From Escherichia coli (GTDB lineage Bacteria; Pseudomonadota; Gammaproteobacteria; Enterobacterales; Enterobacteriaceae): a stretch of DNA of 64,000 bases. Positions 2,829 to 21,116 of the stretch are shown piece after piece. The number at the start of each line of letters is the position of its first letter. Positions within the stretch are counted from its first letter, which is position 1. A program made the translations under genes and the position numbers. The notes below the pieces were generated by a model. That model worked only from the letters and a program-made list of their open reading frames with translations, did not search any database and was not told the DNA's origin. Where the stretch lies: the NCBI RefSeq assembly GCF_003334765.1, contig NZ_QOWT01000022.1; one strand, 5' to 3'.

Positions 2829-3174
2829 TCTCTGCTCCTGTTGATACGGAAAGGGAAACAGGCACACCGTTATTACGCCGCCCGGTCAGCTCCACCACCA
2901 TTGAACCGTCAAAATCGCTGTTGATGGTGATGGAATCCAGCGTCAGCCGTGGCTCCCAGCGACTCAGCGCCACATACACTGCCGACATGACCTGCAGGCG
3001 TAATGCCGGATTTTGTGGCTGGTCTATCAGTGCCGACAGCAGAGAACCATATTCCCGACGGGCAATACGGCTACCCTGCGGTGTCAGCAGAATGTCCCGC
3101 ACCGACTGGCGCAGATGGTCAATATCAGTAATGGCTTTGCCGCTGGTATTGTTCATCCCGCTATAAAGCGTCAT
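2815..3174 (-). CDS. Baseplate assembly protein (P2 gpW-like, GPW/gp25 family)
   Basis: 119-aa ORF; start overlaps gpV stop as ATGA; position between V and J. Confidence 0.75.
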   Translation of the reverse strand: MTLYSGMNNTSGKAITDIDHLRQSVRDILLTPQGSRIARREYGSLLSALIDQPQNPALRLQVMSAVYVALSRWEPRLTLDSITINSDFDGSMVVELTGRRNNGVPVSLSVSTGAENGSD

Positions 3175-3749: not shown

Positions 3750-3852
3750 AGATATATGATGACAGCTGAAAACTTGTTTATAACTTCTTGCAAATTGTGG
3801 TATCGATGGTACAAATTGATAAAAGGATAAAAAACAACCAATAGGTGGATAA

Positions 3853-4659
3853 ATGAGTGTTATGAATCCAATAAGTTCTAATATATTTAATGCTGAATTT
3901 TTAAACACCCCGGCAGCGGCACTTGCCGCATGGATTTCCATTATTGGAGCTGTTATAACTTTGGTGACGATAGTTATAAGAGCACTATTCAAATATAGAA
4001 AATCTCATGATGTAATTTTGAAAAAATCAGGAATACCTGCGTTTATATTGAATTTTTTTCTTATACGAATATCATTAAAAAGGCTGCCTACTATCACATG
4101 GGCTGAAAAATCAATCACGGTTCTCTTTTCACTTCTTTTTTTGTGTGCAATTTATATTTTTGGTCCAGTTTTCATCCAAGCCATTAGAACCCCACCAAAT
4201 AGCACATTGCTTTATTGGATAAAATCCGGTGAATCATTTTATATGTCAAAAAAACTGGCGACTGCAGCTACAATATTAACCACTCCTGATTGGGAAATAT
4301 CAAAGGATGATTGCGAAGAGTCATCCTCTGCCAGTACAGAGAAGTACAAATCATTAACTATCGAACATAAAGAAATTCTTTGTAAACTACTAACCACTGA
4401 TGAAGGGAATGCTTACATTGATGAAGAAGTCAAGAATTTCGTTAAAGACAAATTCTTTATCTATTCCTTTGCCCCAACAACCATATTTATTCTATTATGG
4501 ATTTCTTTGGGTTTTATACTGACCATTCACTATTCTAAAAAAGTTAGGAAATATATTCTGACTGAACAAAAAAATGCAATTCATTGGGCATATGGTGAAT
4601 TCAAGACAGAAGGAATCTATTCAATATATCAAGAGTTAGAACGTAAGACTCACCATTAA
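3853..4659 (+). CDS. Hypothetical polytopic membrane protein (moron inserted between tail genes S and V)
   Basis: 268-aa ORF, strongly AT-rich unlike flanking tail genes; several hydrophobic segments (e.g. AALAAWISIIGAVITLVTIVI, ITVLFSLLFLCAIYIFGPVF, TTIFILLWISLGFILTI); no recognisable domain. Confidence 0.6.
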   Translation: MSVMNPISSNIFNAEFLNTPAAALAAWISIIGAVITLVTIVIRALFKYRKSHDVILKKSGIPAFILNFFLIRISLKRLPTITWAEKSITVLFSLLFLCAIYIFGPVFIQAIRTPPNSTLLYWIKSGESFYMSKKLATAATILTTPDWEISKDDCEESSSASTEKYKSLTIEHKEILCKLLTTDEGNAYIDEEVKNFVKDKFFIYSFAPTTIFILLWISLGFILTIHYSKKVRKYILTEQKNAIHWAYGEFKTEGIYSIYQELERKTHH

Positions 4660-5047
4660 GACCCAACAAACGACGCTCTGCGTAACGCACTTCCGGTCCT
4701 TTGCGGCTGACGCGATCGCGCAGGCCATAATGGTGAACGCGGGCAATGCGCTGCACCTTACCTTCAAACTGCACGCTGGCAGAATCGGCGCTGGCGGCAG
4801 TTTTCAGGTATTTGGTGGTGCGCAGCTTTGCAAACATCTGACGTTTGATGCGGCCTTTTTTACTGCGCGCCGTGACCTTGCGCGGTTCATAACTGCTGCC
4901 ATCTGGATTGCGCTGCATCCTGATATTCTGCTGCTGTGTCCGGCGCAGTTCCTGCGCCAGCTGGCGCATCATGCGGCTTCTTGCGACTGGTTCCAGATTC
5001 GCCAGTAAGGCACTAAGCCAGTCGTCCACCTTCTGCAGTTCAGCCAC
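4601..5047 (-). CDS. Tail completion / virion morphogenesis protein (P2 gpS-like); last ~19 codons encoded by AT-rich insert DNA
   Basis: 148-aa ORF with basic gpS-like sequence; position next to R; 3' end 4601-4659 overlaps the convergent moron ORF. Confidence 0.7.
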   Translation of the reverse strand: MAELQKVDDWLSALLANLEPVARSRMMRQLAQELRRTQQQNIRMQRNPDGSSYEPRKVTARSKKGRIKRQMFAKLRTTKYLKTAASADSASVQFEGKVQRIARVHHYGLRDRVSRKGPEVRYAERRLLGLNGESYVLTLDILNRFLLS

Positions 5048-5498
5048 GTTTCACCGTCCACATTTCTTCAGGTTCATCGGGTTCTGCTACCGCTTCAACG
5101 CTCGACACACTGCCGTCAGTGCTGACCAGCACACGTTCCGTCAGTTGCAGGTTAAGGCTGATATCACAGACATCGTTGCGCAGAATATCCACCTCAAAGG
5201 TAAATAGTTTTTCCCGTAACGCCGGGTTATTGATGGCATCGGGCTGGTTATCCCGCAGCCACAGCAAAACCGGGGCCATCAGCAGATTCTGGTCGCCGCT
5301 GAAATCCTCAATCACCACGTTCAGGGTGTAACCACGCAGCCCTACGAGTTCACTAAAGGCAGTATCTTTCACCTGATGGAGCCGGACCTGAACCAGGAAA
5401 TTTACGGCCTGCCGGAATATCTGTCCGCCATTCCGTCCGCCTTGCTGAACGAGTCCGCTACGCTGTTCCGGCGTAAATACTACATCAATGGCAGTCAT
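5040..5498 (-). CDS. Tail completion protein (P2 gpR-like); N-terminus possibly not native
   Basis: 152-aa ORF; C-terminal ~100 aa look gpR-like (YTLNVVIEDFSGD...LTERVLVS); N-terminal ~40 codons are antisense to the portal fragment. Confidence 0.65.
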   Translation of the reverse strand: MTAIDVVFTPEQRSGLVQQGGRNGGQIFRQAVNFLVQVRLHQVKDTAFSELVGLRGYTLNVVIEDFSGDQNLLMAPVLLWLRDNQPDAINNPALREKLFTFEVDILRNDVCDISLNLQLTERVLVSTDGSVSSVEAVAEPDEPEEMWTVKRG

Positions 5499-5906
5499 GC
5501 AGGGTTCATCATGTATATGACCGACGCCGCGCAGAACCAGGAGGACGTGAACAACATCCGCCAGGCCATGAAAAGCGCTAAAGGACCGGGCAACTTCCGC
5601 AACCTGTTTATGTATTCACCCAACGGCAAAAAGGACGGGATTCAGATAATCCCGCTGTCAGAGGTAGCGGCAAAGGATGAGTTTCTGAACATTAAGAACG
5701 TGAGCCGAGACGACATGATGGCTGCACACCGCGTTCCGCCGCAGATGATGGGGATTATGCCGAGTAATGTTGGGGGATTTGGGGATGTGGAAAAGGCGAG
5801 TAAGGTGTTTGTCCGTAACGAATTGATACCGCTGCAAAAGCGAATTAAAGAAATTAATGAATGGTTGAGTGATGAAATAATTTCTTTCCAACCATATGAA
5901 TTATAA
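5376..5906 (+). pseudogene. Portal protein fragment (P2 gpQ-like, C-terminal portion only)
   Basis: 176-aa ORF ending ...NVSRDDMMAAHRVPPQMMGIMP...; portal-like C-terminus, about half the expected length; directly abuts gpR on the opposite strand with no capsid, terminase or lysis genes between. Confidence 0.6.
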
Positions 5907-5907
5907 T

Positions 5908-5934
5908 AAAGTAGGGCAAATAATGCCCTACTTT
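5908..5934. terminator. Bidirectional stem-loop between convergent portal fragment and 285-aa cargo gene
   Basis: Perfect inverted repeat AAAGTAGGGC-(AAATAAT)-GCCCTACTTT flanked by A/T runs. Confidence 0.6.
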
Positions 5935-6785
5935 AACCAAATATTATAATCCAATCTTCCTACGTATCTTGAAAAAACAGCCAGAGCAATTGCTTGCCCT
6001 ACACTTGTTAATTCAATTCCTTGATAGTTGCTCTTTGAAAATTTTTCTAAAAATGCAGACACATGAGGGGCAACTAACTTAAGATTTGAAATATATGCAC
6101 TCTTATCTTTTATATCAGTCGGATATTTACTCATAAAATAGTCTTCAACATCCATCCCTAAAAAAGTATTCCATGAACAAGCCCCTGCATATTGAATGTG
6201 ATATATCTGGGCTTGAGACAAATTAAACCCATTAGTATACATTGATTCAAAGTTTCTAAAATTGTGCTCCAACAAATCCAATCGAACACCATTAACAGGG
6301 TCTTTGATCTCAACATTCTTGAGAAGAAAAACTATCGTTATAAGTGATATTTGTTGCTGTGTTAACTTGGGAACGACGGTAACTGCCTCCGTTAAAACTA
6401 TATCTCTAAAATCGTCATTGTTATTGGAGACTCGTTCAACTAACAACTGAGAAAGCACATCCATATTAGCTTTCTTTCCCTTCCTGGCTGATGACTTTAA
6501 TGCCTCAGTCAATGTAGCCTGAACGTCCGGATCGCAAAATTTATCAATAATCAATCTATCAACGTTTTTTGTTAAATCCGAAACGACACGCTCTTCAAAA
6601 TCTTTTGCATTCTCTTGAGCTGCAGCATAAGCAACATCTTTCAATTTTGGAAACTGATTTTCGAAGAGAATGTTGAATAGTTCTCTAACCTCGGAAAACG
6701 ACATCCCTGAAACATTTACATTATTTCCAGCTTGAATTGCATACGAATTATTACCTATTTGTTGCTTTTGCTTATCACTAAACAT
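5928..6785 (-). CDS. Hypothetical protein, 285 aa (AT-rich cargo, cos-proximal)
   Basis: Long ORF in AT-rich DNA; no domain recognised; N-terminal low-complexity motif IGNNSYAIQAGNNVNV. Confidence 0.65.
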   Translation of the reverse strand: MFSDKQKQQIGNNSYAIQAGNNVNVSGMSFSEVRELFNILFENQFPKLKDVAYAAAQENAKDFEERVVSDLTKNVDRLIIDKFCDPDVQATLTEALKSSARKGKKANMDVLSQLLVERVSNNNDDFRDIVLTEAVTVVPKLTQQQISLITIVFLLKNVEIKDPVNGVRLDLLEHNFRNFESMYTNGFNLSQAQIYHIQYAGACSWNTFLGMDVEDYFMSKYPTDIKDKSAYISNLKLVAPHVSAFLEKFSKSNYQGIELTSVGQAIALAVFSRYVGRLDYNIWLK

Positions 6786-6794
6786 ATATCCTCC

Positions 6795-7040
6795 TTATTT
6801 TTTATCACCTGTATTTATACAATCAATTTTAATATCACCTCTAGCCTGGACAGCAGTTGAATTATCACCAACTGATTGGCTCATAGAATTATATTTATTT
6901 TTTGTAGTGATAAGTAATCCAGCTAAAGCGCTAACTGCAGCCAAAAATGCAACAATAGAATCAAAACCAGGATCCATATAAAGCCATAATCCTGCAATCG
7001 ATGCCAGCATACATGTAATGACTATTGCAAAAATTTTCAT
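6795..7040 (-). CDS. Small membrane protein, 81 aa, two predicted TM helices; co-oriented 9 bp upstream of the 285-aa gene
   Basis: Hydrophobic segments IFAIVITCMLASIAGLWLY and IVAFLAAVSALAGLLIT; C-terminal tail VGDNSTAVQARGDIKI resembles the N-terminus of the downstream protein. Confidence 0.55.
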   Translation of the reverse strand: MKIFAIVITCMLASIAGLWLYMDPGFDSIVAFLAAVSALAGLLITTKNKYNSMSQSVGDNSTAVQARGDIKIDCINTGDKK

Positions 7041-7108
7041 AAATTCTCCTTCTAATGGAAGTGGTTATACCGAAAACAATTTCCTTTTACAACCACGCAC
7101 AGCGCGCG

Positions 7109-7127
7109 CTCGTATCCCCGCCACGCC
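7109..7127 (-). other. cos-like site (P2/186-type cohesive-end sequence)
   Basis: Minus strand reads GGCGTGGCGGGGATACGAG, close to the P2/186 cos overhang as I recall it (GGCG[A/T]GGCGGGGAAAGCA-); sits in a GC-rich island inside AT-rich DNA. Confidence 0.45.
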
Positions 7128-7345
7128 TGCCCGCTTTGTGTAGTGGTTTTCATGCACCTGCATGACATAAGTAAAAGCCCGCCAGAACTGGCGGGACTGA
7201 GCAAAAACGATCCTTTTGCGATCATTCATTTTCATGCGCTATAGTCATGCAACAAACGCATACGAACCATATGGTTAGATTACTCATCAAGTCAGATGGA
7301 TTTTCAGGCAGATTGCCACAGCAATTGTAAAGGAGCGAGATTGAA

Positions 7346-8347
7346 ATGGGTGGAGAGACTTCGGCTATACAACGAGTCGCGGGTAAGATTTCTGATGATA
7401 TTTTCTCAGTGTTCAAATGGGATCGTGCCGCTAGAGCGGACATGAATTGGGATTGTTGCCAAGAGGCTCATTCCAAGAAAACACATCCAAGCGATGTTGT
7501 ATTTTTCTACATAGATCCATATGAGGAGGAAATGGTCTATCTCAACACAGACCTCAAAAGCTATGCAGAAGGTACTATTGGGAAAAAAATAGTCGAGGGA
7601 GCTTTAACATCGCTTGCTTTAGCTACCGAGTGTGCAAATGTCAGTGAAGAATGGCGATTGAAATATGTTCATGATGATTCTTTAGGTTATAACGTAAGAG
7701 GGTTATTATTCTTATATAACCATGATAATTTATATGATAAAGACTTCTATGAGAATATTACAAAAAAATTAGATCACTCATCTATAAATTGCCCTCCAAA
7801 CATCAAACTACATTTGCTTGACCCTTATAAAATATCAGATTTGATAAACATATCTTCTGACATAACTAAGTTAATTGGTTCAGGCAAACTTCCTCAACCT
7901 GATAAGTTCACATATTATTATCCAGATCTTTCCCTAACAAGAATAAAGCACCCTATTAATCAGACAACACCTGCAACAATTGAATTATTAACATCACCAT
8001 ACATTATAATAAAGCATGAGGCTTTCAGTTGGCTCAGGGATAAAAACCCTGAGGGATATGTTGTTTATTACAATCAACCGGGGGATTCAGTAGACGAATT
8101 CGTTTACTTCTTTGATATGTTATCAACTTATCAGATATTAACCGAAGGTAAACCAATCGTATTACGCCATTGTCACATTCACCCAAATGAAAATGCCATT
8201 CATCATTTTGAAAGAGCGAAAAAGAAATACAGCACAGACTGGCTCTTAGGCGAGGATGAAAGACTTTTTCTTAAAATTGACTTCGACAAGACAGACAAAA
8301 TTGTTGTTGAATATAATCTTGAACAAATCGGCATGGAGCAACGATAA
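7346..8347 (+). CDS. Hypothetical protein A, 333 aa (first gene of three-gene cargo operon)
   Basis: ORF with AGGAG-like RBS ~10 nt upstream; AT-rich; stop overlaps next start (TAATG); no Walker A, RT or TIR motif seen. Confidence 0.7.
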   Translation: MGGETSAIQRVAGKISDDIFSVFKWDRAARADMNWDCCQEAHSKKTHPSDVVFFYIDPYEEEMVYLNTDLKSYAEGTIGKKIVEGALTSLALATECANVSEEWRLKYVHDDSLGYNVRGLLFLYNHDNLYDKDFYENITKKLDHSSINCPPNIKLHLLDPYKISDLINISSDITKLIGSGKLPQPDKFTYYYPDLSLTRIKHPINQTTPATIELLTSPYIIIKHEAFSWLRDKNPEGYVVYYNQPGDSVDEFVYFFDMLSTYQILTEGKPIVLRHCHIHPNENAIHHFERAKKKYSTDWLLGEDERLFLKIDFDKTDKIVVEYNLEQIGMEQR

Positions 8348-9426
8348 TGGCTAAAAAACTATATTTCGCAACTGATAAAAATATTTATGATGCATTACAT
8401 CATAAAAGGATAACCGCTGCAAAGTTGCATGAATTATTGTTGAATCGAGGTGTGTTTTTATCACCAGAACTCGACAAGGAAATACTAATCGAGGAAATAT
8501 CCAAACTTCCTCACGGATTTAATGAATTAGAACACATAAAAAAACTGGTCAAAACATATGACCCAAGGGAAAGCACTACTAGTGTGAGCTTCCAAACCTC
8601 AACAAATCAGGCCGAATTAAAAAGTGCTGCTGAAGCACTAAAAAAAACATGCTCCCCTAGTAAAGGTCAAAGCCTGAATATTGTAGCTAAAAAAGATGGC
8701 TCGCTTACAGTAGAATACAAATATGAAGAAATAGACCTGTCTAAAACTGCATTACGTCAGATCGACAAGCGGAATGTTATAATAGAACTTCGCCCTGGAG
8801 CTGACAAAGTTGAAGTACGTATGCCTCAAAACCCCGAGGCAAAAAAAGTTATTGAGAGCTTGCAAAACGAGCTATCTAAAATCAAGTCCGAACCTATCGA
8901 GCGCTTCGAAATATCATTACTAGCAATAACTGATCCTACATTGCGAAGTCAGTTTTTTCAGGAATTAATGAATGGTCTACGCGGTTATGAGACTGATGAC
9001 GTAACAAAAGTCGAATTAAATCGCAGTACTGATGCTAGTGAGGATGAAGACAAGGAAGAAACTATTGATACCGGATTTGTTAAGAAAGCCGTCCTTAATG
9101 GTGAAGGGGTAAATAGTTCAGCTATATTTTCTCAACTACATGAGAAAGGTTATTATATCGGGCGTATTGCATGGTCTTCAAAGCCGACAAGTGGAATTGG
9201 AGACAGAATCAACGTCGAAGCATTTTTCAAAGACTCAGAAAAATGCTGTGACTTTGCCTATCAAATTAAAGGTATAAACAATCAAAAAGAAGACGGTTTC
9301 AATGTAACCATTCGCGCGGCAACGGCACAAGAGAAAAAACATATTAGTGAATTAATTGAGTCCGCCGCTGAAAATGCCTATAATATAATAATAGGATCAG
9401 AGGTGAACGAAGATGAAAAAGGTTAA
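8347..9426 (+). CDS. Hypothetical protein B, 359 aa (second gene of three-gene cargo operon)
   Basis: ORF coupled to gene A by a 1-nt overlap and to gene C by a 14-nt overlap; acidic stretch DASEDEDKEE; no recognisable domain. Confidence 0.7.
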   Translation: MAKKLYFATDKNIYDALHHKRITAAKLHELLLNRGVFLSPELDKEILIEEISKLPHGFNELEHIKKLVKTYDPRESTTSVSFQTSTNQAELKSAAEALKKTCSPSKGQSLNIVAKKDGSLTVEYKYEEIDLSKTALRQIDKRNVIIELRPGADKVEVRMPQNPEAKKVIESLQNELSKIKSEPIERFEISLLAITDPTLRSQFFQELMNGLRGYETDDVTKVELNRSTDASEDEDKEETIDTGFVKKAVLNGEGVNSSAIFSQLHEKGYYIGRIAWSSKPTSGIGDRINVEAFFKDSEKCCDFAYQIKGINNQKEDGFNVTIRAATAQEKKHISELIESAAENAYNIIIGSEVNEDEKG

Positions 9427-10096
9427 ATGGCTTAAGTTAAACATACGGCTTGAGTTTGAAACAGCCGTTAGACGTCTTTCTCTTGATTCTTTTACAGAGG
9501 ATAAAGGGAAAGGGTTCATTTTTGATAAAATACGCCATGATTTTGCAAATGGTCGCTTTGTCGAGCGTATTGTTTATCATGATAAAATATTAAGCTTTGA
9601 CGGAAGCGAAACTACCGTTGAAAGAATCGAATATCGCACCACAAATTTTAGCGTGGCTTTAGACTCTCTTCCTGTAATGCAGATTACTAACCCACCCAGA
9701 ACTTTAAAGCCTTTTTCGCAGGCTTTGGTAAAAAATCTTGGCTTAGGTGTTAGTTTGGAAGAAATTGACATAAACCCTATAGACTGGCTTAATGAAATAT
9801 CTTCAAGTGTAAATATCAATTTAACACAACTTGATATTTCAAGGGTTAGAGTTTCTGATTACGCCACAGCTAAAATGCAAATAATTGGCAGCAATGATCT
9901 TAGGAAGTATTATAAAGAAGAATTAGAGGGTAAAAAAATAAGAATTGACAGGCTTGTTTGCTCTGTTAATTCATTAGAATATTCCGGTAAGCTCAAGATC
10001 ACCAATAGCGGCCTTGCTTATATTGATGTTAGAAATGAGAATGAGTTTACGAAAATCGTTTTTGATACGTTAAAAAAAGTCACCCTTCAATCATAG
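9413..10096 (+). CDS. Hypothetical protein C, 227 aa (third gene of three-gene cargo operon)
   Basis: ORF starting inside the end of gene B; followed by a strong hairpin; no recognisable domain. Confidence 0.65.
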   Translation: MKKVKWLKLNIRLEFETAVRRLSLDSFTEDKGKGFIFDKIRHDFANGRFVERIVYHDKILSFDGSETTVERIEYRTTNFSVALDSLPVMQITNPPRTLKPFSQALVKNLGLGVSLEEIDINPIDWLNEISSSVNINLTQLDISRVRVSDYATAKMQIIGSNDLRKYYKEELEGKKIRIDRLVCSVNSLEYSGKLKITNSGLAYIDVRNENEFTKIVFDTLKKVTLQS

Positions 10097-10152
10097 ATGG
10101 CTTATAAGGAGTTACTTCACCTAACGCCTCGCCTTACTCGTTGTTCAACCTC

Positions 10153-10183
10153 GTAGGCGTCAGAATCAAGTTCTGACGCCTAC
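10153..10183. terminator. Bidirectional stem-loop between cargo operon and DinI-like gene
   Basis: 13-bp perfect inverted repeat GTAGGCGTCAGAA-(TCAAG)-TTCTGACGCCTAC. Confidence 0.6.
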
Positions 10184-10191
10184 AATGTTTC

Positions 10192-10425
10192 TTAATGCAG
10201 CCAGCTATCGTCCTCCCAGACCTGCTGCATTATTTCCATCACTCGCTTTTTGTCTTCATCCAGTTTTAACCCGCTCAGCTCAACGCCATTGGCGCTGCCC
10301 TTACGGATACGAATTGCTGTTTTGGGATACAGAGGGCGCAAATTACGGTAAAGCTCGGATTCAAGGGCGTCCAGGGTAGACTGGCTAATCTTCTGCTCTT
10401 TATCGATCATTATTTCAATGCGCAT
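10192..10425 (-). CDS. DinI-like protein
   Basis: ORF 10192-10497; internal Met begins MRIEIMIDKEQ..., 77 aa, alignable by eye to E. coli DinI (MRIEVTIAK...WESADDW); downstream of a LexA box. Confidence 0.7.
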   Translation of the reverse strand: MRIEIMIDKEQKISQSTLDALESELYRNLRPLYPKTAIRIRKGSANGVELSGLKLDEDKKRVMEIMQQVWEDDSWLH

Positions 10426-10435
10426 AAAAGCCACC

Positions 10436-10624
10436 TCAGCTGATGACATCCATTGAGCGGTTGTATTCGTGGGTTCTGATTTTTGCCATGAGTTCATCTG
10501 TCAGTTCAGAAACCCACTGCAGAGCCAGCCCCTTCTCTTCATCACTACACTCACTAGCCGCTACAAGCTTAAGAAAAAAATCAATGCGCTGGAGCTTCAA
10601 AGACTCCAAAAAATAGTCCTGCAT
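10436..10624 (-). CDS. Small protein, 62 aa, first gene after the LexA box (possible Tum-like antirepressor)
   Basis: ORF ~40 bp downstream of the LexA box; position corresponds to the SOS-controlled tum module of 186-like phages; functional call is by position only. Confidence 0.35.
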   Translation of the reverse strand: MQDYFLESLKLQRIDFFLKLVAASECSDEEKGLALQWVSELTDELMAKIRTHEYNRSMDVIS

Positions 10625-10664
10625 CTTTCCTCCTATGACACCAAAGCAACACTGTATACATAAC

Positions 10665-10683
10665 CACTGTTTGTATTTACAGT
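10665..10683. promoter_or_regulatory. LexA operator (SOS box) upstream of the tum-like/DinI-like module
   Basis: ACTGTTTGTATTTACAGTA fits CTG-N10-CAG; AT-rich promoter-like context. Confidence 0.7.
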
Positions 10684-10775
10684 ATATAATAATATTACTG
10701 ATGTAAAACGTTTTTTACGTTCATCAGCCTGATATGCCTGGTATTATTAAGAGCACGAATTGTTAACCTGCGTAA

Positions 10776-13190
10776 TTAATACAGGTTCCGCCACTTATCA
10801 TCTTCCTGCAAACGCTGGTTCCGATAGAAGATACGCAGGCCTGCTCCTGACGGAATACTGCCACCACGTAGGAGTAAATCGACCTCTTTCTCGCTGCCAT
10901 CAAATCCTCTGGACTTCAGCTCATAGACGAGCTGCTGTCGCTGATGATCTGTAATTCGCTGTTTGTAGTCTTTACGCCGTTTCAGCTTAACTAGGCGTAA
11001 CCTCGCTGCCAGTTCCCGGCGCTCTTTTTTGCTCATACTGTGCAGGTAATCGTGCAATTCCTTGTCATCCATGCGGGTAATGTCCGTTCTGGTGTCCCCA
11101 TCAGCTGATTTATCTTTATCCTGTTGGTTCAAATTTTCAGCAAGGGGACAGTTATTGCCACGAGTCCAAGGGGCGCAAGCGCCCTGGTCGGCTGCCGCCT
11201 CCTGAACGTCAACGGCTTTACGAACCATTTTCCACTTCACTGCATGAGTGCAGATCTTGCCCTCTGCAATGGGTGACCAGATGCCATAAATACGAATGCC
11301 GTGATCGCCATAGGCGGTCGGCTCTTCGTTGATTTCATAAGCGGTTCTGATGAGGTGATATTTACGGGGAACCAGTACGCCGCCCTGCTTCATGATGTAG
11401 GTGGCAAAACAACCAGCATCAGCAGCAGCCAGAATGGCATCAAGACGCGGGTTATCCAGTACCGGCGCACCTGCTTTTTTGTCACCCTGTTGCCTTGCCG
11501 CCTGACCAGCCAGCAAGCGAAGTTCACGGTAAGCCTGACGCCCCGGAATACCAAAGAAGCGGAATTGCTGAACACGATGCAGAGACGCCCAGGCATTAAC
11601 GTATTCAGCGTTATCACGCAGGGATTTACCCGTTTCCTTGCTGATCTCGCCAGCCAGACCACGCCCGTCAATGTTCTTACTGATGTATTTCGCGATGTAG
11701 CTTGTTGGCGTACCTTTGCGCGGGTTTATCAGCTCAGACTTAAAGCGTGGCCCCGTGTTATTGCCCAGCTCCTCGCGGTCTTCACGGATGGCAAACTTAC
11801 GCAACAATGCAGTAATGGCGCGGCGGTCTTTTTTGCGCATGAAACACAACAGGTGCCAGTGAACTGTGCCGTCATGATGCGGTTCAGCCACCCGCACGCC
11901 ATACCAGCGCAACCCGGCTTTGTGCATAGCCTTACGAAATGCAGCAAACATGCCGACCAGATAATCGCTGCTTTGTCTTACCGTCGCGTTTGTCCAGGTC
12001 GGGTTTGGTCTGCCGTTATTGAGCGTGGAATGGAAACGCGACGGACAGGTGATAGTGTAGAAAACGGCACAGTCACTGCGCATTTCTGCGATAAGCTCCA
12101 GACCTTTAACACAGGCCATCATCTCATTGCGGCGATGCGCCGGGTTGCTGCTGCTGGCGTTTACCACATCCTCCATGTCCAGCGTGTCGCCGTCTTCGTT
12201 CACCAGTTCATGAGAACGGAAAAACTCCAGCGACTTACGGCGCTGCTCACGTTTATGCATCACGGCTTCATAGCTGACATAGGGAGATGCTTTTTTGCTG
12301 ACCAGGCAAACAGCACGCAACTGCTCTTCCCGCCATTCGCAACGCATCTTCCATAATTTCCGGTACCACCAATCGGCGCACAACATACGCGCCAGCGAAC
12401 CCGGAATGAGTTCATAGGGCACGGGTTTACGGCGGTTTCTTTTCCGACGAAGTTGCTCAAACGCAGGCGGGATAACATCCAGTCGCAGGGTTTCTGCTGC
12501 CACCTTTTCCCATGTCTTGCGGATTTCTTCTGGCTTAACATCATCGGTGGCGTACAAATCACCACAAGCGGCATCAAGACACATGCTCATATGCGCAGCG
12601 ACAAGAGTAGACAGGCGTTTCACCTGATCCTGACTCATTTCAGGCAGAATCAGCAGGCCGTCCAGCCCTACATGGCTTGCCATAAAACGAAAAGATGCAG
12701 ATAGCTGGCTGTCGCGTACATGCTCCAGTCGCTCCAAACATGGCTTAATCGTCTCACGCAAATAGCGGGAATAAGCCTTTGGCCTGCCCAGGCTGCTGAA
12801 GTATTCAATACGTTGCATCAGCGGCTTGCTGATATGGGAAGGCTGGGCATTGACGTCCGCCAGAATGACCATATCTGGATTAAAACGCTGCTGCTCATGC
12901 GCCAGCTTTGCCCGACTAATGAGCTTATCCTGCTCCATTTCGCGCTGGACAGGATCACGGGATTCATTAAAGAAATAACGCTCCCAGACCTGATCACTCA
13001 GTGCCTCGCGGCGCAGGTGTTCCTGTTCGTTATCGGCAGCGTACAGAGCGATCAGGTTTGAAAGCGCAGAAACCGGCGCAACTTCCGCCGGGTCCAGATA
13101 AGGGTTAATGGCCTTTTTCGGGCTGTTCCATGAGAACGCTGCGGCAGCCTCGTTAAAGCCGCAGCAGTTGTTCATATCGGCATGGCTCAT
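10776..13190 (-). CDS. Replication initiation protein A (P2/186 gpA-like rolling-circle replicase)
   Basis: 804-aa ORF, the size and position of P2-family gene A; start overlaps Dam stop. Confidence 0.75.
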
Positions 13191-14044
13191 GCACGTACTC
13201 CGTACACGGCAGAACTATCCACGCCACGCGAATAATCAAATCCCACCCAGCAGCGCGGCCCGGAAACAGCAATGATTTCTGTTGCTGATTTACCCTCGCC
13301 AGCTGCCACACCGATGCTGCGTTTTACCTTGATATAGTGGTGAGTAAAATTGCGATACAGCGAACGGATCAGGGATGTATCACTGTTAGAAACAATGACC
13401 GGATGTCCTTCTGATGACCGATGTTCAAGAACGGATGCCAGGTGATACTGGTCATCTTCAGTGAAACCATCAGTGTGATAGCCGGAAAACGTACCGTCAT
13501 ACGGCGGATCGCAATACACCACATCCCCCGCCTTCAACATCGCCAGCGTTTCATCAAAGCTGGCGCAGATAAACGTTGCTCGCTGGGCTTTTTCTGCAAA
13601 TGCGCGAATTTCTTTTTCAGGGAAATACGGATTTTTATAATTACCGTAGGGAATGTTGAAATGCCCGCTCTTGTTATAGCGACATAAACCACGGTAACCG
13701 TGACGATTGAGATACAGGAAATATACCGCTTTCATGAAATCAGTAATTTCAGTTGAGTAATTAAACTCCTGCCTTATGTTGTAATAAGCCCCCCCCCTGT
13801 TTGCGATCTCAAATAAAACTCTGGCGCGAGATATAAACGATTCACAATCAGCAGCAACCTTTTTATAGAGGTTGATTAAATCAGGATTAATATCCGCAAC
13901 AAGATAGCTGGGGTACTCCGTCTCCATCATCACTGCACAGGAACCCGCGAAAGGTTCAACCAGTCGCGGGCCAGCAGGAAGATGCTTTTTCAGTTCGGAC
14001 ATAATGGCGGTTTTATTTCCCGCCCATTTCAGGATGGTGCTCAT
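13187..14044 (-). CDS. DNA adenine methyltransferase (Dam-like, D12 class)
   Basis: ORF 13187-14104; start chosen at internal Met ([11 protein letters not shown]...); motifs EPFAGSCAV and DPPY typical of Dam-type N6-adenine methyltransferases. Confidence 0.85.
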
Positions 14045-14268
14045 ACAGCACCTCCGTTGTAATGTTTGCCTTTCAGCTCTGCGATTTCCTGACAGGTAAT
14101 GCAAAGCTGCACACCCGGAATGGCACGGCGGCGTGCTGGCGGAATTGGCGCTTCACACTCAATGCAAAGCACGCGGGACACGCCCGGCGTTTTGGCACGG
14201 GCAGCACGGATATGACGCTGGCGTTCTTCTTCAACGCGCTGCTGTACGAGATCCATTGCATCAGCCAT
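14041..14268 (-). CDS. TraR/DksA-family C4 zinc-finger protein
   Basis: 75 aa with CIEC...CITC cysteine pairs. Confidence 0.7.
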   Translation of the reverse strand: MADAMDLVQQRVEEERQRHIRAARAKTPGVSRVLCIECEAPIPPARRRAIPGVQLCITCQEIAELKGKHYNGGAV

Positions 14269-14507
14269 TAGTGGATCTCCTGCGCTTCGTTCTGGATTGC
14301 TTCAGCTGCCACACGCAGCAGTTCAGCCGCTTCAACGTGGTTTAGCTGGCGGGATGTGATATGGCACGCAAGGCTATCAAGGCGAGCTGCCATTGCTTCA
14401 GCTCTTGCCCGACGTTCTTCCAGACGAGCCTCTGTCAGTAAAATATTAAGTCCTGCGTCATCCGGTCCGGTTTTAGTCGAGAGGGTTTCAATATTACGCA
14501 TAATCAA
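14268..14507 (-). CDS. Hypothetical phage early-region protein, 79 aa
   Basis: ORF packed in the early operon between the TraR-like gene and upstream genes. Confidence 0.5.
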   Translation of the reverse strand: MIMRNIETLSTKTGPDDAGLNILLTEARLEERRARAEAMAARLDSLACHITSRQLNHVEAAELLRVAAEAIQNEAQEIH

Positions 14508-14568
14508 TTCTCCTGAATTTAGATAAAGGAATGCCCGGCGGGTTTACGCCATGAATTTCATTAATTGG

Positions 14569-14910
14569 TTAATTCGGCATGGCTAGCCGTCTGGGAAATA
14601 AGCTCACCACTGCACGAAGATGATTCATTACTTTAATCAACTCCCGCTTTTCGTCAGTGGTCAGCTCATTAATGCTGATGCTATGACGTTCAGCTGGAAT
14701 TTTTGCTATAAAGAATATAGCAGCCAGTGCTCGTTTATTTCGTTCATAATTAATATCCCGTGGATCACGCATATCTTTAATAAACCGCTCAAGCTCTGAC
14801 TCAATATTCAGGCCAAAAACTTTCGCCCTTAACTCTGCAATGTGATTAAGTCCATTCAGGCGTTCACCGGGGCTTAATGGAACAGTTGCTGCAGCGCCAT
14901 TAATTGCCAT
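14569..14910 (-). CDS. Hypothetical phage early-region protein, 113 aa
   Basis: ORF in early operon; no recognisable domain. Confidence 0.5.
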   Translation of the reverse strand: MAINGAAATVPLSPGERLNGLNHIAELRAKVFGLNIESELERFIKDMRDPRDINYERNKRALAAIFFIAKIPAERHSISINELTTDEKRELIKVMNHLRAVVSLFPRRLAMPN

Positions 14911-15027
14911 ACTTCATATCCCCCAAACGCAGCTATCGTTCTTTGTTCTTACGGTAACGCTCAAGAGGAGATACATTTTTTCGTATCGTCTCTTTAACCT
15001 GCTCTCCCCGTAAAAACGTCCCATCCT

Positions 15028-15324
15028 TTAACGTGAAAAAGTAACTGCCATCGCCCGACAATGACGGATAGCAACAGAGCAAATCATCTTCAGGTACTGA
15101 ATAACTCTCCCCTCTGTAACGAAACTGATAAACCACTTCACTTTCTGCCGCATACATTTGGACTTTCTCCGTTTCCTCGTGGTCAATTCAGACAGCAATT
15201 CATCTTGTGAATGACATGGATGCCAGCGTTTTCCATCCTCACCCGTGATCCAGCCGTGACCGTAGTGCATTGCCGGGCTTTGTTTTACCAGCAGCGATGC
15301 AAATGATGGTTCTTTCGTCAGCAT
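15028..15324 (-). CDS. Hypothetical early protein immediately downstream of cII (candidate Fil/Dhr-like); boundaries uncertain
   Basis: ORF 15028-15354 with start placed at internal Met (MLTKEPSF...); overlaps a second out-of-frame ORF 14933-15157, so only one is likely real. Confidence 0.35.
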   Translation of the reverse strand: MLTKEPSFASLLVKQSPAMHYGHGWITGEDGKRWHPCHSQDELLSELTTRKRRKSKCMRQKVKWFISFVTEGRVIQYLKMICSVAIRHCRAMAVTFSR

Positions 15325-15331
15325 AAGCACC

Positions 15332-15841
15332 TCACAGCAAACCGAATGAAGCACCGAGGCCAGTCACGGTATCAACTGCACTCGCCATCGCAGGATTAGC
15401 CTGTAAACGGGCCTGCAATGAAACAGCAGCCAGCGCCATCAGTCGTGTTACAGAGTTAATGCTGCTGATAGCATCACGACGACCGGCACTAGTTTTTACA
15501 TCACCAGATACCGCACCTGCTGCAACACGCCCGATCTCTGCAGTTGCGCTCATGACGTAATGCGGCAGTTTCTCTTTTGCTACCTCATTAATCGGTACAC
15601 ATGGCAGACAATGAATCTGTGCCAGAAAACCATCTACCAACGTTGAATCTTCAGTCAGATCGGTAAGCAGCCAGATTTCTGGTGCGGTTAATAAATGAGG
15701 TTGAGCTGGGTTCAGCTTGTTCCGCAGAATCTGCACATTCATGCCCGCACGTTCTGCCAGTTGCACCAGATTGTGGCGCAGTGCGAATGCACGACAGGCT
15801 TCATCAAAATGTGGATGTTTGGAAACTTGGTAATCAAACAT
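15332..15841 (-). CDS. cII: Phage regulatory protein CII (186-type, CP76 family)
   Basis: ORF 15332-15850; start at [19 protein letters not shown]... gives 169 aa; sequence matches what I recall of 186 CII. Confidence 0.75.
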
Positions 15842-15905
15842 GGTTTTCAACTCCGAACTTATCGCAAAATCGAACTCAGCGTCTTATTGCGAAAATAGAC
15901 GTCTA

Positions 15906-16109
15906 TTAAGCAGACAAAGCATCAACAGTCAGAGCAGCCAGGTTAATCATTACCTTTTCACGTTTTTTGTCTTTACGAAGACGATGACGAGGTAGTCGGC
16001 CATCAGCCAACATGTCGTTAATCGTATCAATAGAAAGGCCAGTCAGTTCGCTATAACGTTCGATTGTGACATGTGGTGTATTCAGAGTAATTGAAATGTT
16101 AGGTGTCAT
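15906..16109 (-). CDS. Apl/Cox-like excisionase and transcriptional regulator
   Basis: 67-aa ORF divergent from the repressor gene, first gene of the early operon. Confidence 0.6.
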
Positions 16110-16254
16110 AAGGCAACATTCCTTCTAGATATGGCTTGTGGCGAGCCGTTGTTTGTCGTGATTAGTAGTGAAGGCTCCAAAAGAACACTTCTGGTTCAAC
16201 TTTAAGATCGCTTTTGGAATCTGTCAACGAATTTTGGATTTCTTTGGAGGACTT
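16110..16254. promoter_or_regulatory. Lysis-lysogeny switch region between apl and cI
   Basis: Intergenic region between divergently oriented apl-like and CI-like genes; operators and promoters expected by analogy with 186 but not mapped. Confidence 0.5.
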
Positions 16255-16824
16255 GTGGATTTCAATAGCGGCGGTAAGAAAGCCATAGAACGTTTAGTTG
16301 AAGCATATGGGTTCGGTACCCGTCAGGCTCTATGTGATCATTTAGGTGTTTCTAAGAGCACCATGGCAACGCGCTATATGCGTGATATTTTTCCAGCAGA
16401 TTGGGTAATCCAGTGCGCCCTTGAAACGGGCACCTCGCTTAATTGGCTAACAACAGGGCATGGTTCAAAGCAAGCATCAGCAAATACAAATACTATAGAA
16501 GTAGAAAAATATTTATTGTCTGATGGAGCATTGCAGAAAGACGGTTTTTATATTTTTGATAAGGGATTTCTACCCTCTACGTTTAAAAAACCTTTTGTCA
16601 TCACAGATAACAATTCTGAATTTATTTGTGATAAAGAATTTGATGATATACGTGATGGTAAATGGGTAATAAGTATTGATGGCGAAATAACGATCCGTGA
16701 CATTACTCGTTTACCCGGTGGAAGAATCTTCGTCGAGGGTGGAAACAGAGCCTTCGAATGCAAGATAGAAGACATTGAAATAATTGGTAAAATTATAAGT
16801 TTAACAGTCAAGTATGTTAAATAG
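16255..16824 (+). CDS. cI: Immunity repressor (186 CI-type)
   Basis: ORF 16168-16824; start placed at GTG 16255 preceded by GGAGGA; product ...ERLVEAYGF...QCALETGTSLNWLTTG... fits the 186 CI N-terminal HTH region; length ~189 aa. Confidence 0.7.
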   Translation: MDFNSGGKKAIERLVEAYGFGTRQALCDHLGVSKSTMATRYMRDIFPADWVIQCALETGTSLNWLTTGHGSKQASANTNTIEVEKYLLSDGALQKDGFYIFDKGFLPSTFKKPFVITDNNSEFICDKEFDDIRDGKWVISIDGEITIRDITRLPGGRIFVEGGNRAFECKIEDIEIIGKIISLTVKYVK

Positions 16825-16839
16825 TACCGGGAGGAAACT

Positions 16840-17031
16840 ATGCTTGGTAAGGTATTTTTTGTGGTTTTGTCATGTTCTTTGTTATTAAACCCACTAACTA
16901 CCTATGCTAGAAATTATCCCTGCTCAGGGAAAAAGGGAGGTGTTTCTCACTGTACCTCAGATGGCAAATTCGTTTGCAATGATGGAACTATTAGTAAATC
17001 CAAAAAAATCTGTACTAAAAACTCACGATAA
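16840..17031 (+). CDS. Small cysteine-rich secreted peptide, 63 aa, between cI and int
   Basis: N-terminal hydrophobic signal-like segment [23 protein letters not shown] followed by ~40 residues with four Cys; AT-rich. Confidence 0.45.
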
Positions 17032-17219
17032 CTTTTGCTTTTATATCTGCGTCTAAAATAAAAATGAGCCGCAGGTTAACCGCAAAAGTTACATGCTCAC
17101 ATAGCAAAAAGAATAGCCAACTTAATTATGGCTTCAGTGAGATGTATGGTCGTAGGATTTCATACATTGACACTGGTTATACATACAGTGAAAATGCTCT
17201 CTACTGGAGGGCATTTTTT

Positions 17220-18296
17220 ATGGCAGTACGAAAACTCACCACTGGGAAATGGCTTTGCGAATGTTACCCCGCCGGACGAAGTGGGCGTCGTGTGCGTAAA
17301 CAATTCGTCACCAAAGGCGAAGCACTGGCTTTTGAGCGCCACACGATGGAAGAAACCGAAGCAAAGCCCTGGCTGGGTGAATCAGTGGATCGTCGAACAC
17401 TGAAAGACGTGGTTGAGCTATGGTTCAAACTACATGGTAAATCTCTGACAGCTGGGCAGCATGTCTATGACAAATTGCTGTTGATGGTTGACGCTCTGGG
17501 CAATCCTCTTGCAACCGATCTCACCTCTAAAATGTTTGCCCACTATCGAGATAAACGCCTGACAGGCGAGATCTACTTCAGCGAGAAATGGAAGAAAGGA
17601 GCAAGCCCGGTCACCATTAACCTGGAGCAAAGCTATCTAAGTAGTGTTTTTAGCGAACTATCCCGTCTGGGCGAATGGTCGTATCCGAACCCACTGGAGA
17701 ACATGCGAAAATTCACCATCGCAGAAAAAGAGATGGCATGGCTTACCCATGAGCAGATTGTTGAATTGCTGGCTGATTGCAAACGTCAGGACCCAATTCT
17801 GGCACTGGTAGTTAAGATATGCTTAAGCACAGGCGCACGCTGGCGTGAAGCCGTAAATCTTACCCGCTCACAGGTGACCAAATACCGAATTACCTTTGTC
17901 AGAACGAAGGGGAAGAAAAACAGAAGCATCCCTATCAGTAAAGAGCTTTACGAAGAGATCATGGCGCTTGATGGGTTCAATTTCTTCACAGACTGCTATT
18001 TTCAATTTTTATCCGTGATGGAAAAAACGTCTATCGTGCTCCCTCGCGGTCAACTCACACACGTTCTGCGCCATACGTTTGCGGCGCACTTCATGATGTC
18101 GGGTGGAAACATTCTGGCCTTACAAAAAATTCTCGGACACCACGATATAAAAATGACTATGCGTTACGCACATCTGGCACCGGATCATCTGGAAACGGCG
18201 CTCCGTTTCAATCCTCTGGCAACGCTGCCAAGTGGCGACAAAGTGGCGACAAAGTGGCGGCAGCGGTTGGCATTACCCCGTAATAACCACCACTGA
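17220..18296 (+). CDS. int: Tyrosine integrase (P2/186 type)
   Basis: ORF 17064-18296; start chosen at MAVRKLTTGKWLCECYP...; C-terminal region HVLRHTFAAH...MRYAHLAPDHL typical of tyrosine recombinases; 3' end abuts host DNA. Confidence 0.9.
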   Translation: MAVRKLTTGKWLCECYPAGRSGRRVRKQFVTKGEALAFERHTMEETEAKPWLGESVDRRTLKDVVELWFKLHGKSLTAGQHVYDKLLLMVDALGNPLATDLTSKMFAHYRDKRLTGEIYFSEKWKKGASPVTINLEQSYLSSVFSELSRLGEWSYPNPLENMRKFTIAEKEMAWLTHEQIVELLADCKRQDPILALVVKICLSTGARWREAVNLTRSQVTKYRITFVRTKGKKNRSIPISKELYEEIMALDGFNFFTDCYFQFLSVMEKTSIVLPRGQLTHVLRHTFAAHFMMSGGNILALQKILGHHDIKMTMRYAHLAPDHLETALRFNPLATLPSGDKVATKWRQRLALPRNNHH

Positions 18297-18301
18297 CCAC
18301 C

Positions 18302-18339
18302 AACCTAACTTATTGTTTTTAATCTAACTTATTGTTTTC
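18302..18339. repeat. Tandem 19-bp direct repeat just downstream of int (candidate att or arm-site region)
   Basis: AACCTAACTTATTGTTTTT followed by AATCTAACTTATTGTTTTC, 17/19 identical. Confidence 0.5.
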
Positions 18340-18387
18340 ATTAACCCGTTTACATAAATGGGTTTTTTGTTATCTAAAACTTATCTA

Positions 18388-18924
18388 CTACCCTGCAACC
18401 CTCTCAACCATCCTCAAAATCTCCTCGCGCGATAGCGGCTTACGGTCGGTGACAAAATGCAGCGTCATCCCCTCAATAAACGCATCAAGCGCGCGGGCGG
18501 TTCCGGGTTCAAACCATTGTTCGAGCGTTTGCTGACTGCGCTGCATCCAGTTTTGCATTACCGTTTTTAATAGCGGTTTTCGGCTAGCCAGCGCGTAGAG
18601 CTGGTACATCAGCTCCATGTTATCCGGCGTTGCAACCTGTGAGCTGTAGATCATATCGGTGATAGCCTGGCATGCGCCCGGAGCATCACTAACATCGCTA
18701 AAAAATGCCTGATATTGCCGGGACATGATCTCAGTAAAACTGCTGAACGCCTCCAGTAACAACTCATCAATTCCTGAAAAATAGTAGGTCATCGATCCCA
18801 ACGGTACCCCGGCAAGGGTAGCAATTTTGCGGTGCGTAACAGCATGTATTCCGTAAAGTTTCACCGCCTCCAGCGTGGCCTGGATAATTTTTTCTCGCCG
18901 TTGCGGATCGTTAGCGCGACGCAT
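18388..18924 (-). CDS. rcdA: TetR-family transcriptional regulator RcdA (YbjK)
   Basis: ORF 18388-18954; start at [14 protein letters not shown]... gives 178 aa. Confidence 0.85.
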
Positions 18925-19007
18925 GTCATTTCCTCTCTCTGCAATTGTGTACAAATGTACACAACCTTGCTAATGTTGTCTTCCCTCTTCTTATTTTGAC
19001 GTGATCT

Positions 19008-21031: not shown

Positions 21032-21116
21032 AACCGGCAGCACGCCCGGCAACACAATGCCTGAATGAAGGCTGCATAATTCGCGGAAATTAACCCGCTG
21101 CATTATTTCAGGCGAA

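Follow-up and report, generated by a model that had tools for sequence, protein, structure and literature searches.

Int-side junction of a probable 186-type prophage at the 3' end of rybB in Escherichia coli, with a third copy of an 11-bp tandem repeat

Where does the prophage beside rcdA end and the Escherichia coli chromosome begin, and what are the two sets of tandem repeats found at the end of its integrase gene? These questions were addressed in a 64-kb stretch of E. coli DNA (contig NZ_QOWT01000022.1), which is hereafter called the window. The original prediction had placed 11-bp repeats at 18230–18262, the int stop at 18296 and 19-bp repeats at 18302–18339, with rcdA about 90 bp beyond int. 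All of these positions could be confirmed, and the stop codons of int and rcdA were 91 bp apart. The features were as follows.

17220–18296, plus strand: int, a 186-type tyrosine integrase of 358 amino acids with the stop codon TGA at 18294–18296 (ORF, translation and homology)
18230–18240 and 18241–18251, plus strand: two copies of the 11-bp tandem repeat, AAGTGGCGACA each, read in the sequence; putative Int arm-type sites
18252–18262, plus strand: the third copy, AAGTGGCGGCA, likewise a putative arm-type site
18302–18320 and 18321–18339, plus strand: the 19-bp tandem repeat pair, AACCTAACTTATTGTTTTT and AATCTAACTTATTGTTTTC, identical at 17 of 19 positions
18388–18924, minus strand: host gene rcdA, whose stop codon starts at 18388, 16 bp from the att core

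The 11-mer array was detected by TRF with a period of 11, 2.7 copies and a score of 60. Within the 64 kb it was the only three-copy tandem with a period of 9–25 bp and at most one mismatch, and the 19-mer pair was the only two-copy tandem with a period of at least 17 bp and at most two mismatches. Since no comparable tandem was obtained in 20 first-order Markov simulations, both arrays exceed chance. An Rfam scan by E value over 17900–18700 returned only two sub-threshold CRISPR-DR matches, lying over the int end and the 11-mers, which were rejected as chance (19.4 and 15.9 bits against gathering thresholds of 45 and 39; E values of 0.19 and 1.8).

The window was 100% identical to K-12 from 18358 rightward, on the rcdA side, which places the prophage–host boundary beside this gene, as had been proposed. 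The DNA left of 18358 was missing at this locus from K-12 and from about 79% of E. coli genomes, and ran on into ogr-side phage DNA in a Klebsiella phage KP12 clone that has a free attP. Proximity to rcdA is the one point in favour of reading the repeats as host sequence, with the true junction further left, inside or before int. Both repeat sets are absent from prophage-free K-12 together with the other DNA left of 18358, and both are continuous with ogr-side phage DNA in the KP12-clone attP; the chance that they are host sequence is negligible, and their assignment to the phage in the original prediction is upheld.

The att core was defined by comparing the K-12 attB, the intact KP12-clone attP and both junctions of FDAARGOS_1249, the far junction of the prophage in the window lying outside the 64 kb. 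FDAARGOS_1249 carries a complete 35-kb lysogen in which the core duplication could be seen, and its junction equals that of the window minus one 11-bp copy. The alignment with K-12 that had been suggested as a check for the core yielded a 14-bp sequence, which the FDAARGOS_1249 junctions also hold and which was the sole identity common to attB, attP and both lysogen junctions. Judging from this comparison, the crossover must lie inside 18358–18371.

18358–18371, plus strand: common att core ATGGGTTTTTTGTT, 14 bp, identical in attB, attP and both junctions
18372–18384, plus strand: extended imperfect core on the host side, ATCTAAAACTTAT in attB and GCCTGAAATTTAT in attP, identical at 9 of 13 positions

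Over the 27 bp of core and extension, attB and attP agreed at 23 positions. The core begins 19 bp past the 19-mers and 95 bp past the 11-mers. An inverted repeat of attP, CATAAAT...ATTTATG, was considered as a core-type site pair and dropped, because its 19-bp spacing is too wide for the overlap region of a tyrosine recombinase; the left copy is also missing from attB.

Integrases of the 186 type commonly target tRNA or tmRNA genes. ARAGORN found neither in the 64-kb window, the K-12 attB region, the full lysogen or attP, which agrees with the absence of a tRNA at the site noted in the original prediction, and RybB was the only Rfam family at attB. The K-12 rcdA–ybjL interval had been described as uninterrupted; it is indeed free of a prophage, but it is not empty, as it contains the sigma-E sRNA gene rybB. 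This gene had escaped notice because the window does not reach the prophage end at which it is situated. RybB (RF00110) scored 105.3 bits in K-12 (E value of 1e-22), and the last model position coincided with the last base of the core. The final 14 nt of rybB, namely the 3' half of the terminator stem and the U-run, constitute the core. Host and phage cores do not differ, so that recombination restores a complete rybB at the far junction; in the related lysogen, the ogr-side junction scored the same 105.3 bits as K-12, and comparison of that junction with the K-12 attB showed insertion at rybB with the gene left intact. A comparison with known P2-family attB sites had also been suggested, and rybB is indeed listed as an insertion site of P2-like prophages (PMC3032704). 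We consider it very likely that 18225–18390 is the int-side junction of a 186-type prophage of the P2 family, inserted at the rybB 3' end in the ybjL–rcdA interval, a confidence that applies to the account as a whole. The junction had been called attR; by the usage for phage 186, in which Apl "binds to attL", and by the annotation of 4LV2017, it is attL.

The core also forms part of a second structure on the phage side.

18343–18371, plus strand: terminator-like hairpin AACCCGTTT-ACAT-AAATGGGTT followed by a T-run (terminator scan)

The RNA fold of the hairpin was –9.0 kcal/mol with z = –3.1. Its left half is phage DNA, its right half and the T-run are the att core, and it is also present in the free attP. 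It is likely the terminator of the cI-int lysogenic transcript, as predicted from its fold. Integration would recombine the 14-bp core, which in the host belongs to the rybB terminator (descending stem, then U-run) and in the phage to the terminator behind int (descending stem, then T-run). The hairpin made of phage DNA and core would still end the int transcript just ahead of rcdA. The minus-strand hairpin was also tried as a terminator of rcdA, and was set aside as weak (–5.5 kcal/mol, z = –1.0, with no T-run).

The repeats had been proposed to mark either the att core or Int arm sites. Neither set is the core; the 11-mers, however, are very probably arm-type sites, as their match to known arm-site sequences suggests. 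The copy AAGTGGCGGCA at 18252–18262 is the exact reverse complement of tgccGCCActt, the arm-site consensus of 186-type integrases (Nilsson et al. 2011, PMC3448106). In the GenBank annotation of phage 186 (NC_001317), the Int arm-type recognition sequences are given as YAYCGCCAYTY, three on the left and two on the right; the 11-mers fit this pattern, and the int side of phage 186 has the tandem GAATGGCGATA-AAGTGGCGGTA. The gap between arm sites and core was 95 bp in the window, in the KP12 attP and in phage 186. The other attP arm carries the following element in the same orientation and outside any ORF.

7176–7195 of the related lysogen (L004) and 5513–5534 of the attP sequence (L006): ogr-side 11-mer dimer ATGGCGACAAATTGGCGGCA

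At least two direct arm-type repeats accordingly lie on each side of the core, the ogr side being read in the related lysogen and the KP12 attP. The N-terminal domain of Int would bind the tandem 11-mers. Int carries W11, E14 and Y16, which we read as the 186-type arm-domain discriminators of PMC3448106, assuming a 5-column offset from the alignment numbering of that paper.

The integrase itself had 56% identity to the phage 186 Int over residues 1–333 (E value of 1e-138), and the PHROG integrase families spanned residues 4–337. The catalytic domain is complete, including the catalytic Tyr (RHTFAAHF...MRYAHL). The ORF-list start at 17064 is an over-call; PGAP begins the homologue at MAVRK. The conserved protein stops near residue 333–337 (about 18220–18230), and the final ~21 residues are translated from the attP arm, into which int reads through. 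The 11-mers had been said to extend the integrase C-terminus. This holds in length, in that the two-copy allele encodes 350 amino acids ending in ...SGDKVAAAVGITP before the stop and the three-copy allele 358 ending in ...SGDKVATKWRQRLALPRNNHH, but the added tail is attP-arm read-through and not a functional domain. The 11 bp of the third copy shift the reading frame of the tail, and Int becomes 8 residues longer, a 7-residue tail being swapped for one of 15 residues. The tail is predicted to be dispensable, with no functional-domain role; the arm-site DNA encodes it because the int frame of the phage lineage continues into the arm sites.

That the int ORF reads through the 11-mers and gains residues from the third copy could instead suggest that the array was born at the phage–host join, as the original prediction supposed, or that it serves to encode a functional C-terminal extension. 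The 11-mers, however, sit 95 bp within phage DNA, occur in the free attP of the KP12 clone and recur on the other arm, where no ORF covers them. Homology to the 186 Int and to the PHROG integrase profiles ends before them, at residue 333–337. In UMNK88 and M37H, a cargo ORF lies between int and the 11-mers, Int ends in ...NPLATLEV or ...NPLATLPTSIASF, and the 11-mers are non-coding yet conserved. An origin at the join or a coding function is hence very hard to credit, and the claim of an origin at the join has to be given up in favour of arm-type sites.

The 19-mers lie in the bend region between the arm sites and the core, and were present in every attP variant aligned. Each contains an IHF-like element, and the prophage also encodes a candidate directionality protein.

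18306–18318 and 18325–18337, minus strand: IHF-like elements AAACAATAAGTTA, each with 1 mismatch to WATCAANNNNTTR
18286–18292 and 18296–18302, plus strand: ACCACCA twice with 10-bp spacing, a speculative candidate Apl/Cox excisionase site
15906–16109, minus strand: Cox/Apl-like excisionase and switch repressor (phrog_575, "Cox-like excisionase and repressor", E value of 1e-29)

Two IHF sites 19 bp apart could not be occupied simultaneously. The IHF consensus is degenerate, and 71 motifs with at most one mismatch were counted on both strands of the 64 kb. The 19-mer array lies 19–56 bp from the core, compared with 27–56 bp for the IHF footprint of phage 186; the analogy of position is approximate, since that footprint (21057–21086) only partly overlaps the best consensus match in 186 (21050–21062). 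A mirror IHF-like site could be found on the ogr-side attP arm. From motif and position, IHF binding is the most likely role of the 19-mers, at about an even chance.

The Cox/Apl gene is flanked by CI and CII homologues, and its product is expected to be the directionality factor for the int-side arm. Sites of Cox/Apl proteins are usually direct repeats, as in P2, WPhi and 186, and these proteins bind the early switch region too. The 19-mers, being direct repeats in a prophage with a Cox-like excisionase, might accordingly be excisionase sites and not IHF sites, and phage 186 has five Apl sites on the same arm, 45–91 bp from the core and partly overlapping the IHF footprint. The Apl sites of 186, however, are farther from the core than the 19-mer array, whose 19-bp period is not helically phased, unlike the ~10-bp period of those sites. 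No 7-mer or longer word from the 19-mer core was found in the apl-cI intergenic region, the sole match, ACCTAAC, being at the repeat edge. Excisionase binding by the 19-mers is possible but rather unlikely on these grounds, and IHF is preferred. When the arm (18225–18372) was compared with the switch region (16095–16185) for a common Apl/Cox motif, only the incidental 7-mers GTGGCGA, CGACAAA and ACCTAAC were shared, and the switch region had no internal repeats of 6 bp or more. The ACCACCA pair lies where phage 186 has its five Apl sites and is nearly invariant among the attP variants aligned; no motif matching it was found in the apl-cI switch region.

The number of int-side 11-mers was three in the window and two in all relatives. 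The three-copy array was found in none of the 1,120 lysogens among 5,426 complete E. coli genomes and in no JGI metagenome contig; in IMG/VR it was found in one contig, against at least 120 two-copy contigs. That contig, UViG 3300045988_157682, agrees with the window in the three copies and in the host flank; as 3 of 8,872 positions differ between them, the two are separate sequence records. The absence from the 1,120 lysogens and the JGI contigs, and the fact that short tandem repeats are error-prone in some assemblies, would fit a sequencing or assembly artefact with a real number of two; with the UViG sharing three copies, and with an 11-bp unit exceeding the usual homopolymer or indel error, an artefact is improbable. 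The distal copy (18230–18240 or 18241–18251) is a rare slippage duplication. Replication slippage would have added one 11-mer in this genome, and the two core-proximal arm sites and their 95-bp spacing would stay untouched, with only the frame of the tail shifted; we infer that the third copy is neutral. One-unit slippage alters both the arm-site number and the tail frame, and might provide a heritable switch for tuning or locking excision, an idea to which we attach very little probability. If such a switch were true, the three-copy allele might mark a lineage with a stabilised or otherwise altered prophage.

The int-side arm was found at the rybB site in 1,120–1,126 of the 5,426 complete genomes (~21%). 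The P2-like prophages Rybb*W, Rybb*B and Rybb*Cr are listed with "rybB ncRNA" as their site of insertion (Archer 2011, PMC3032704), and PhiECO1, PhiECO2, PhiECO3 and PhiSEN1 have one common insertion site (Nilsson 2011, PMC3448106). The coordinates of PhiECO2 in ATCC 8739, given in Table 1 of the latter, coincide with the arm match found in that genome, and on this the equation of the two sites rests. The literature already describes this insertion site, the phage family and the arm-site consensus. All of these prophages (Rybb*W, Rybb*B with retron Ec86, Rybb*Cr, PhiECO1-3 and Salmonella PhiSEN1) occupy the same site between ybjL/rybB and rcdA, with the same int-side arm, including that of ATCC 8739 (Crooks, PhiECO2), and the same 186-type integrase and switch (CI, Apl/Cox, CII). 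The gene order of the window (int, small ORF, cI, apl, cII, ..., dam, replication gene A) is that of the annotated lysogens. The window differs from them in having three int-side 11-mers instead of two, an Int of 358 and not 350 amino acids, and other hot-spot cargo (Hp1-Hp3 genes).

Coliphage 186 (NC_001317) likewise has tandem 11-bp arm sites of the same consensus on both arms, the 95-bp int-side gap and a target at the 3' end of a structured-RNA gene that is rebuilt on integration; its IHF and RDF region is placed between the arm sites and the core, where the putative one of this prophage would also lie. Its target, however, is tRNA-Ile (ileY) with a 36-bp common sequence, whereas that of this prophage is rybB with 14 identical bp; its lysogenic terminator lies across the core on the B side, whereas the hairpin here straddles the core; it has orf69 between int and the arm sites, into which int runs directly here; and its binding was footprinted, whereas binding in this prophage is deduced. 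Other P2-family phages use cyaR (Wphi2, the K-12 ogr-D' remnant) or ssrA (Fels-2, SopEPhi) (PMC3032704 Table 2; PMC3448106). They too integrate into a regulatory RNA gene other than a tRNA gene, at its terminator or 3' end, and do not inactivate it, but with other core sequences and other integrase specificities. In Klebsiella 4LV2017 (Elveevirus), the Kp48xx series and the KP12 clone, the int 3' end, 11-mers, 19-mers, hairpin and core were 95–97% identical to those of the window; 4LV2017 has attL annotated at the same core and the KP12 clone shows the intact attP, while the host is Klebsiella and the 11-mer copies number two.

The third 11-mer is the sole unusual feature of this junction. The finding has limited importance beyond correct annotation, with about one fifth of complete E. 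coli genomes carrying a prophage here. Useful corrections are the exact placement of the core at 18358–18371 and the recognition of the Int "extension" as read-through into regulatory DNA. As a minor natural variant, the rare third arm site could be used for testing the effects of arm-site number or of the Int tail on recombination.

The tandem 11-mers, the tandem 19-mers, the int stop and the adjacent rcdA described in the original prediction were all confirmed in position:

18230-18262: three tandem 11-mers, AAGTGGCGACA, AAGTGGCGACA and AAGTGGCGGCA
18294-18296: int stop codon TGA
18302-18339: two tandem 19-mers, AACCTAACTTATTGTTTTT and AATCTAACTTATTGTTTTC
ending at 18388, minus strand: rcdA ORF

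The long ORF has an ATG further upstream, but the integrase proper begins with MAVRKLTTGKW... at 17220. No other tandem repeats like these two arrays occur in the 64 kb, and since none comparable arose in 20 Markov-simulated sequences, they are not a product of chance. ARAGORN found no tRNA or tmRNA across the window, as had been claimed. Between the arrays, ACCACCA occurs twice with 10-bp spacing (18286-18302), where phage 186 has Apl sites; the pair is nearly invariant among attP variants (4LV2017 reads ACCGCCA). A 63-aa ORF between cI and int (16840-17031, plus strand), with a signal-like hydrophobic N-terminus and several cysteines, matched phrog_6000 (unknown function, E 2e-34); its relatives are annotated as 'YdcA family protein' or hypothetical.

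When 18100-19000 was searched by megablast in 5,426 complete E. coli genomes, K-12 (100% identity) and most strains matched solely from 18358 rightward, while 1,126 genomes matched the whole stretch, with 'phage integrase' annotated there. The core was defined by comparing the window with the K-12 ybjL-rcdA interval, with both prophage ends of the related lysogen FDAARGOS_1249 (a complete 35-kb P2-like prophage whose int-side junction is that of the window minus one 11-mer) and with the intact attP of a Klebsiella phage KP12 clone, in which ogr directly follows int. ATGGGTTTTTTGTT was exactly common to attB, attP and both lysogen junctions (alignment A1); because the window follows attP to its left (..CATTAACCCGTTTACATAA) and K-12 to its right (ATCTAAAACTTATC..), the common core could be placed at 18358-18371. 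This is the outcome of the alignment to K-12 and to the other prophage end that had been proposed, the far end being supplied by FDAARGOS_1249. A weaker likeness runs 13 bases past the core, attB and attP being identical at 23/27 positions, and attL is annotated on the core sequence in Klebsiella phage 4LV2017. In phage 186 the int-side junction is called attL, so the earlier label 'attR' reflects window orientation only. A one-mismatch IHF-consensus element, TATCTAAAACTTA (18371-18383, plus strand), lies in host DNA directly right of the core, where the 27-bp extended core is imperfect.

Scanned with Rfam, the K-12 interval yielded the host target, the RybB sRNA gene (RF00110, L001:2436-2514, 105.3 bits, E 1e-22). 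The RybB model ends exactly on the final core base, so the 14 bp of the core make up the descending side of the terminator stem of RybB and the U-run. RybB scored the same at the ogr-side junction of the lysogen as in K-12, indicating that integration rebuilds rybB. Since rybB is situated at the other prophage end, outside the window to the left, the window itself gave no RybB match. The original prediction missed this target, whose 3' end Rfam places at attB. Although no tRNA is involved, insertion is therefore still at a structured RNA gene, at its 3' end, in keeping with what is known of such integrases.

Five lines of evidence point to the 11-mers as integrase arm-type sites, at which we infer that Int binds. 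The arm-repeat consensus of 186-type phages is tgccGCCActt (Nilsson et al. 2011, PMC3448106), and the third copy, AAGTGGCGGCA, is its exact reverse complement. The GenBank annotation of phage 186, whose attP architecture is closely parallel, lists 'Int arm-type recognition sequences' (consensus YAYCGCCAYTY), three left and two right of attP, with GAATGGCGATA-AAGTGGCGGTA in tandem at an 11-bp period on the int side. The dimer recurs in the same orientation on the other attP arm of this phage (ATGGCGACAAATTGGCGGCA), and the core-proximal 11-mer lies 95 bp from the core edge in the window, KP12 attP and phage 186 alike. Int shares 56% identity with 186 Int, and we read its W11, E14 and Y16 as putative counterparts of the 186-type arm-domain residues named in PMC3448106. 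In UMNK88 and M37H the integrase stops earlier (...NPLATLEV* and ...NPLATLPTSIASF*) and a small cargo ORF separates int from the 11-mers, yet the stretch from the 11-mers to the core is conserved. This places the 11-mers in a non-coding attP module, into which the int frame of the window's lineage merely runs on; likeness to 186 Int and to PHROG integrase profiles ends at residue 333-337. The cargo ORFs (110 aa, L002:2637-2969, UMNK88; 89 aa, L003:2211-2480, M37H; both annotated hypothetical) occupy the slot of orf69 in phage 186, from int stop to 11-mers. About 350 of ~1,120 lysogens match 18196-18296 solely from the 11-mers onward, so variation in the cargo slot or at the int 3' end is frequent.

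Of the earlier proposal that the repeats mark the attR core or Int arm sites, the arm-site part holds for the 11-mers. Neither array can be the att core, since the join lies 95 bp to the right of the 11-mers and 19 bp to the right of the 19-mers. The repeats did not originate at the phage-host join, as their distance from it and the place of the 11-mers in the attP module show.

The third copy was found to be rare. Whole-length matches to 18196-18296 occurred in 769 genomes, all at 89.1% identity, equivalent to an 11-base gap, and a 71-base query of three copies and right flank had no full-length match among 1,120 lysogens. The three-copy string was absent from JGI metagenome contigs and present in one IMG/VR contig, versus at least 120 contigs for the two-copy string. 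As that contig carries the same allele (3 of 8,872 positions differ from the window; same host flank), the allele is apparently genuine and restricted to a single lineage. Its most economical origin is slippage in the tandem array. The extra copy disturbs neither the two proximal sites nor their spacing, and turns the Int tail from ...KVAAAVGITP* (350 aa) into ...KVATKWRQRLALPRNNHH* (358 aa); this tail is probably dispensable, because relatives vary freely past NPLATL.

The 19-mers were conserved in all attP variants aligned, the differences falling mostly at bases 1-5 of the unit. On the minus strand each unit holds AAACAATAAGTTA, which departs from the IHF consensus WATCAANNNNTTR by one mismatch; there are 71 such matches on both strands of the window, 2 of them within these 38 bp. 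The ogr-side arm of attP has a third one-mismatch element of this kind, in mirror orientation. The array spans 19-56 bp from the core, and the 186 annotation places the int-side IHF footprint at 27-56 bp and five Apl sites at 45-91 bp. Because of this positional comparison, candidate IHF sites (about even odds) were preferred over Apl/Cox sites; however, the consensus is degenerate and sites 19 bp apart cannot both hold IHF. Putative Apl/Cox sites appear unlikely, and a search for a motif common to this arm and the apl-cI switch region, the early regulatory region of the prophage, was negative.

Between the 19-mers and the core, phage DNA reads AACCCGTTT-ACAT-AAATGGGTT followed by TTTTGTT, a terminator-like hairpin (-9 kcal/mol, z = -3.1) whose right half is the core. 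It was found in attP as well and probably ends the cI-int transcript.

Elsewhere in the window, three adjacent ORFs (333, 359 and 227 aa; 7346-10096, plus strand) matched PADLOC Hp1, Hp2 and Hp3 (PDLC03004-6) over full length (E 1e-157 to 1e-248) and PHROG families of unknown function. They occupy the cargo hot spot of P2, flanked by replication gene A and by the portal/capsid module, and differ from the cargo of the FDAARGOS_1249 prophage. Across the window, Rfam gave a single family that exceeded its gathering score, the ES036 (CssrF) sRNA (48668-48710, plus strand, 41.6 bits), unrelated to the junction. The nearest prophage copies to 278-18400 were in NZ_CP148585.1 (Z1322HEC0001) and NZ_CP148400.1 (Z1323HEC0009), records of ~55 kb with 99.9% identity, in which ~25 kb corresponds to the ~18-kb query, so ~7 kb is extra DNA. 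Plasmid records were matched at 3-5 places in the searches.

Archer et al. 2011 (PMC3032704) tabulate 'rybB ncRNA' as the site occupied by P2-like prophages of E. coli W, B and Crooks, of which the one in B carries retron Ec86; their table assigns cyaR and ssrA to other elements. PhiECO1 (HS), PhiECO2 (ATCC 8739, 3023202-3058101), PhiECO3 (CFT073) and PhiSEN1 share one integration site (Nilsson et al. 2011), and the junction match in ATCC 8739 (3057922-3058011) is consistent with where PhiECO2 ends on the right. The prophage belongs to a described family and occupies a described site; its third arm site, a rarity, is a minor oddity.
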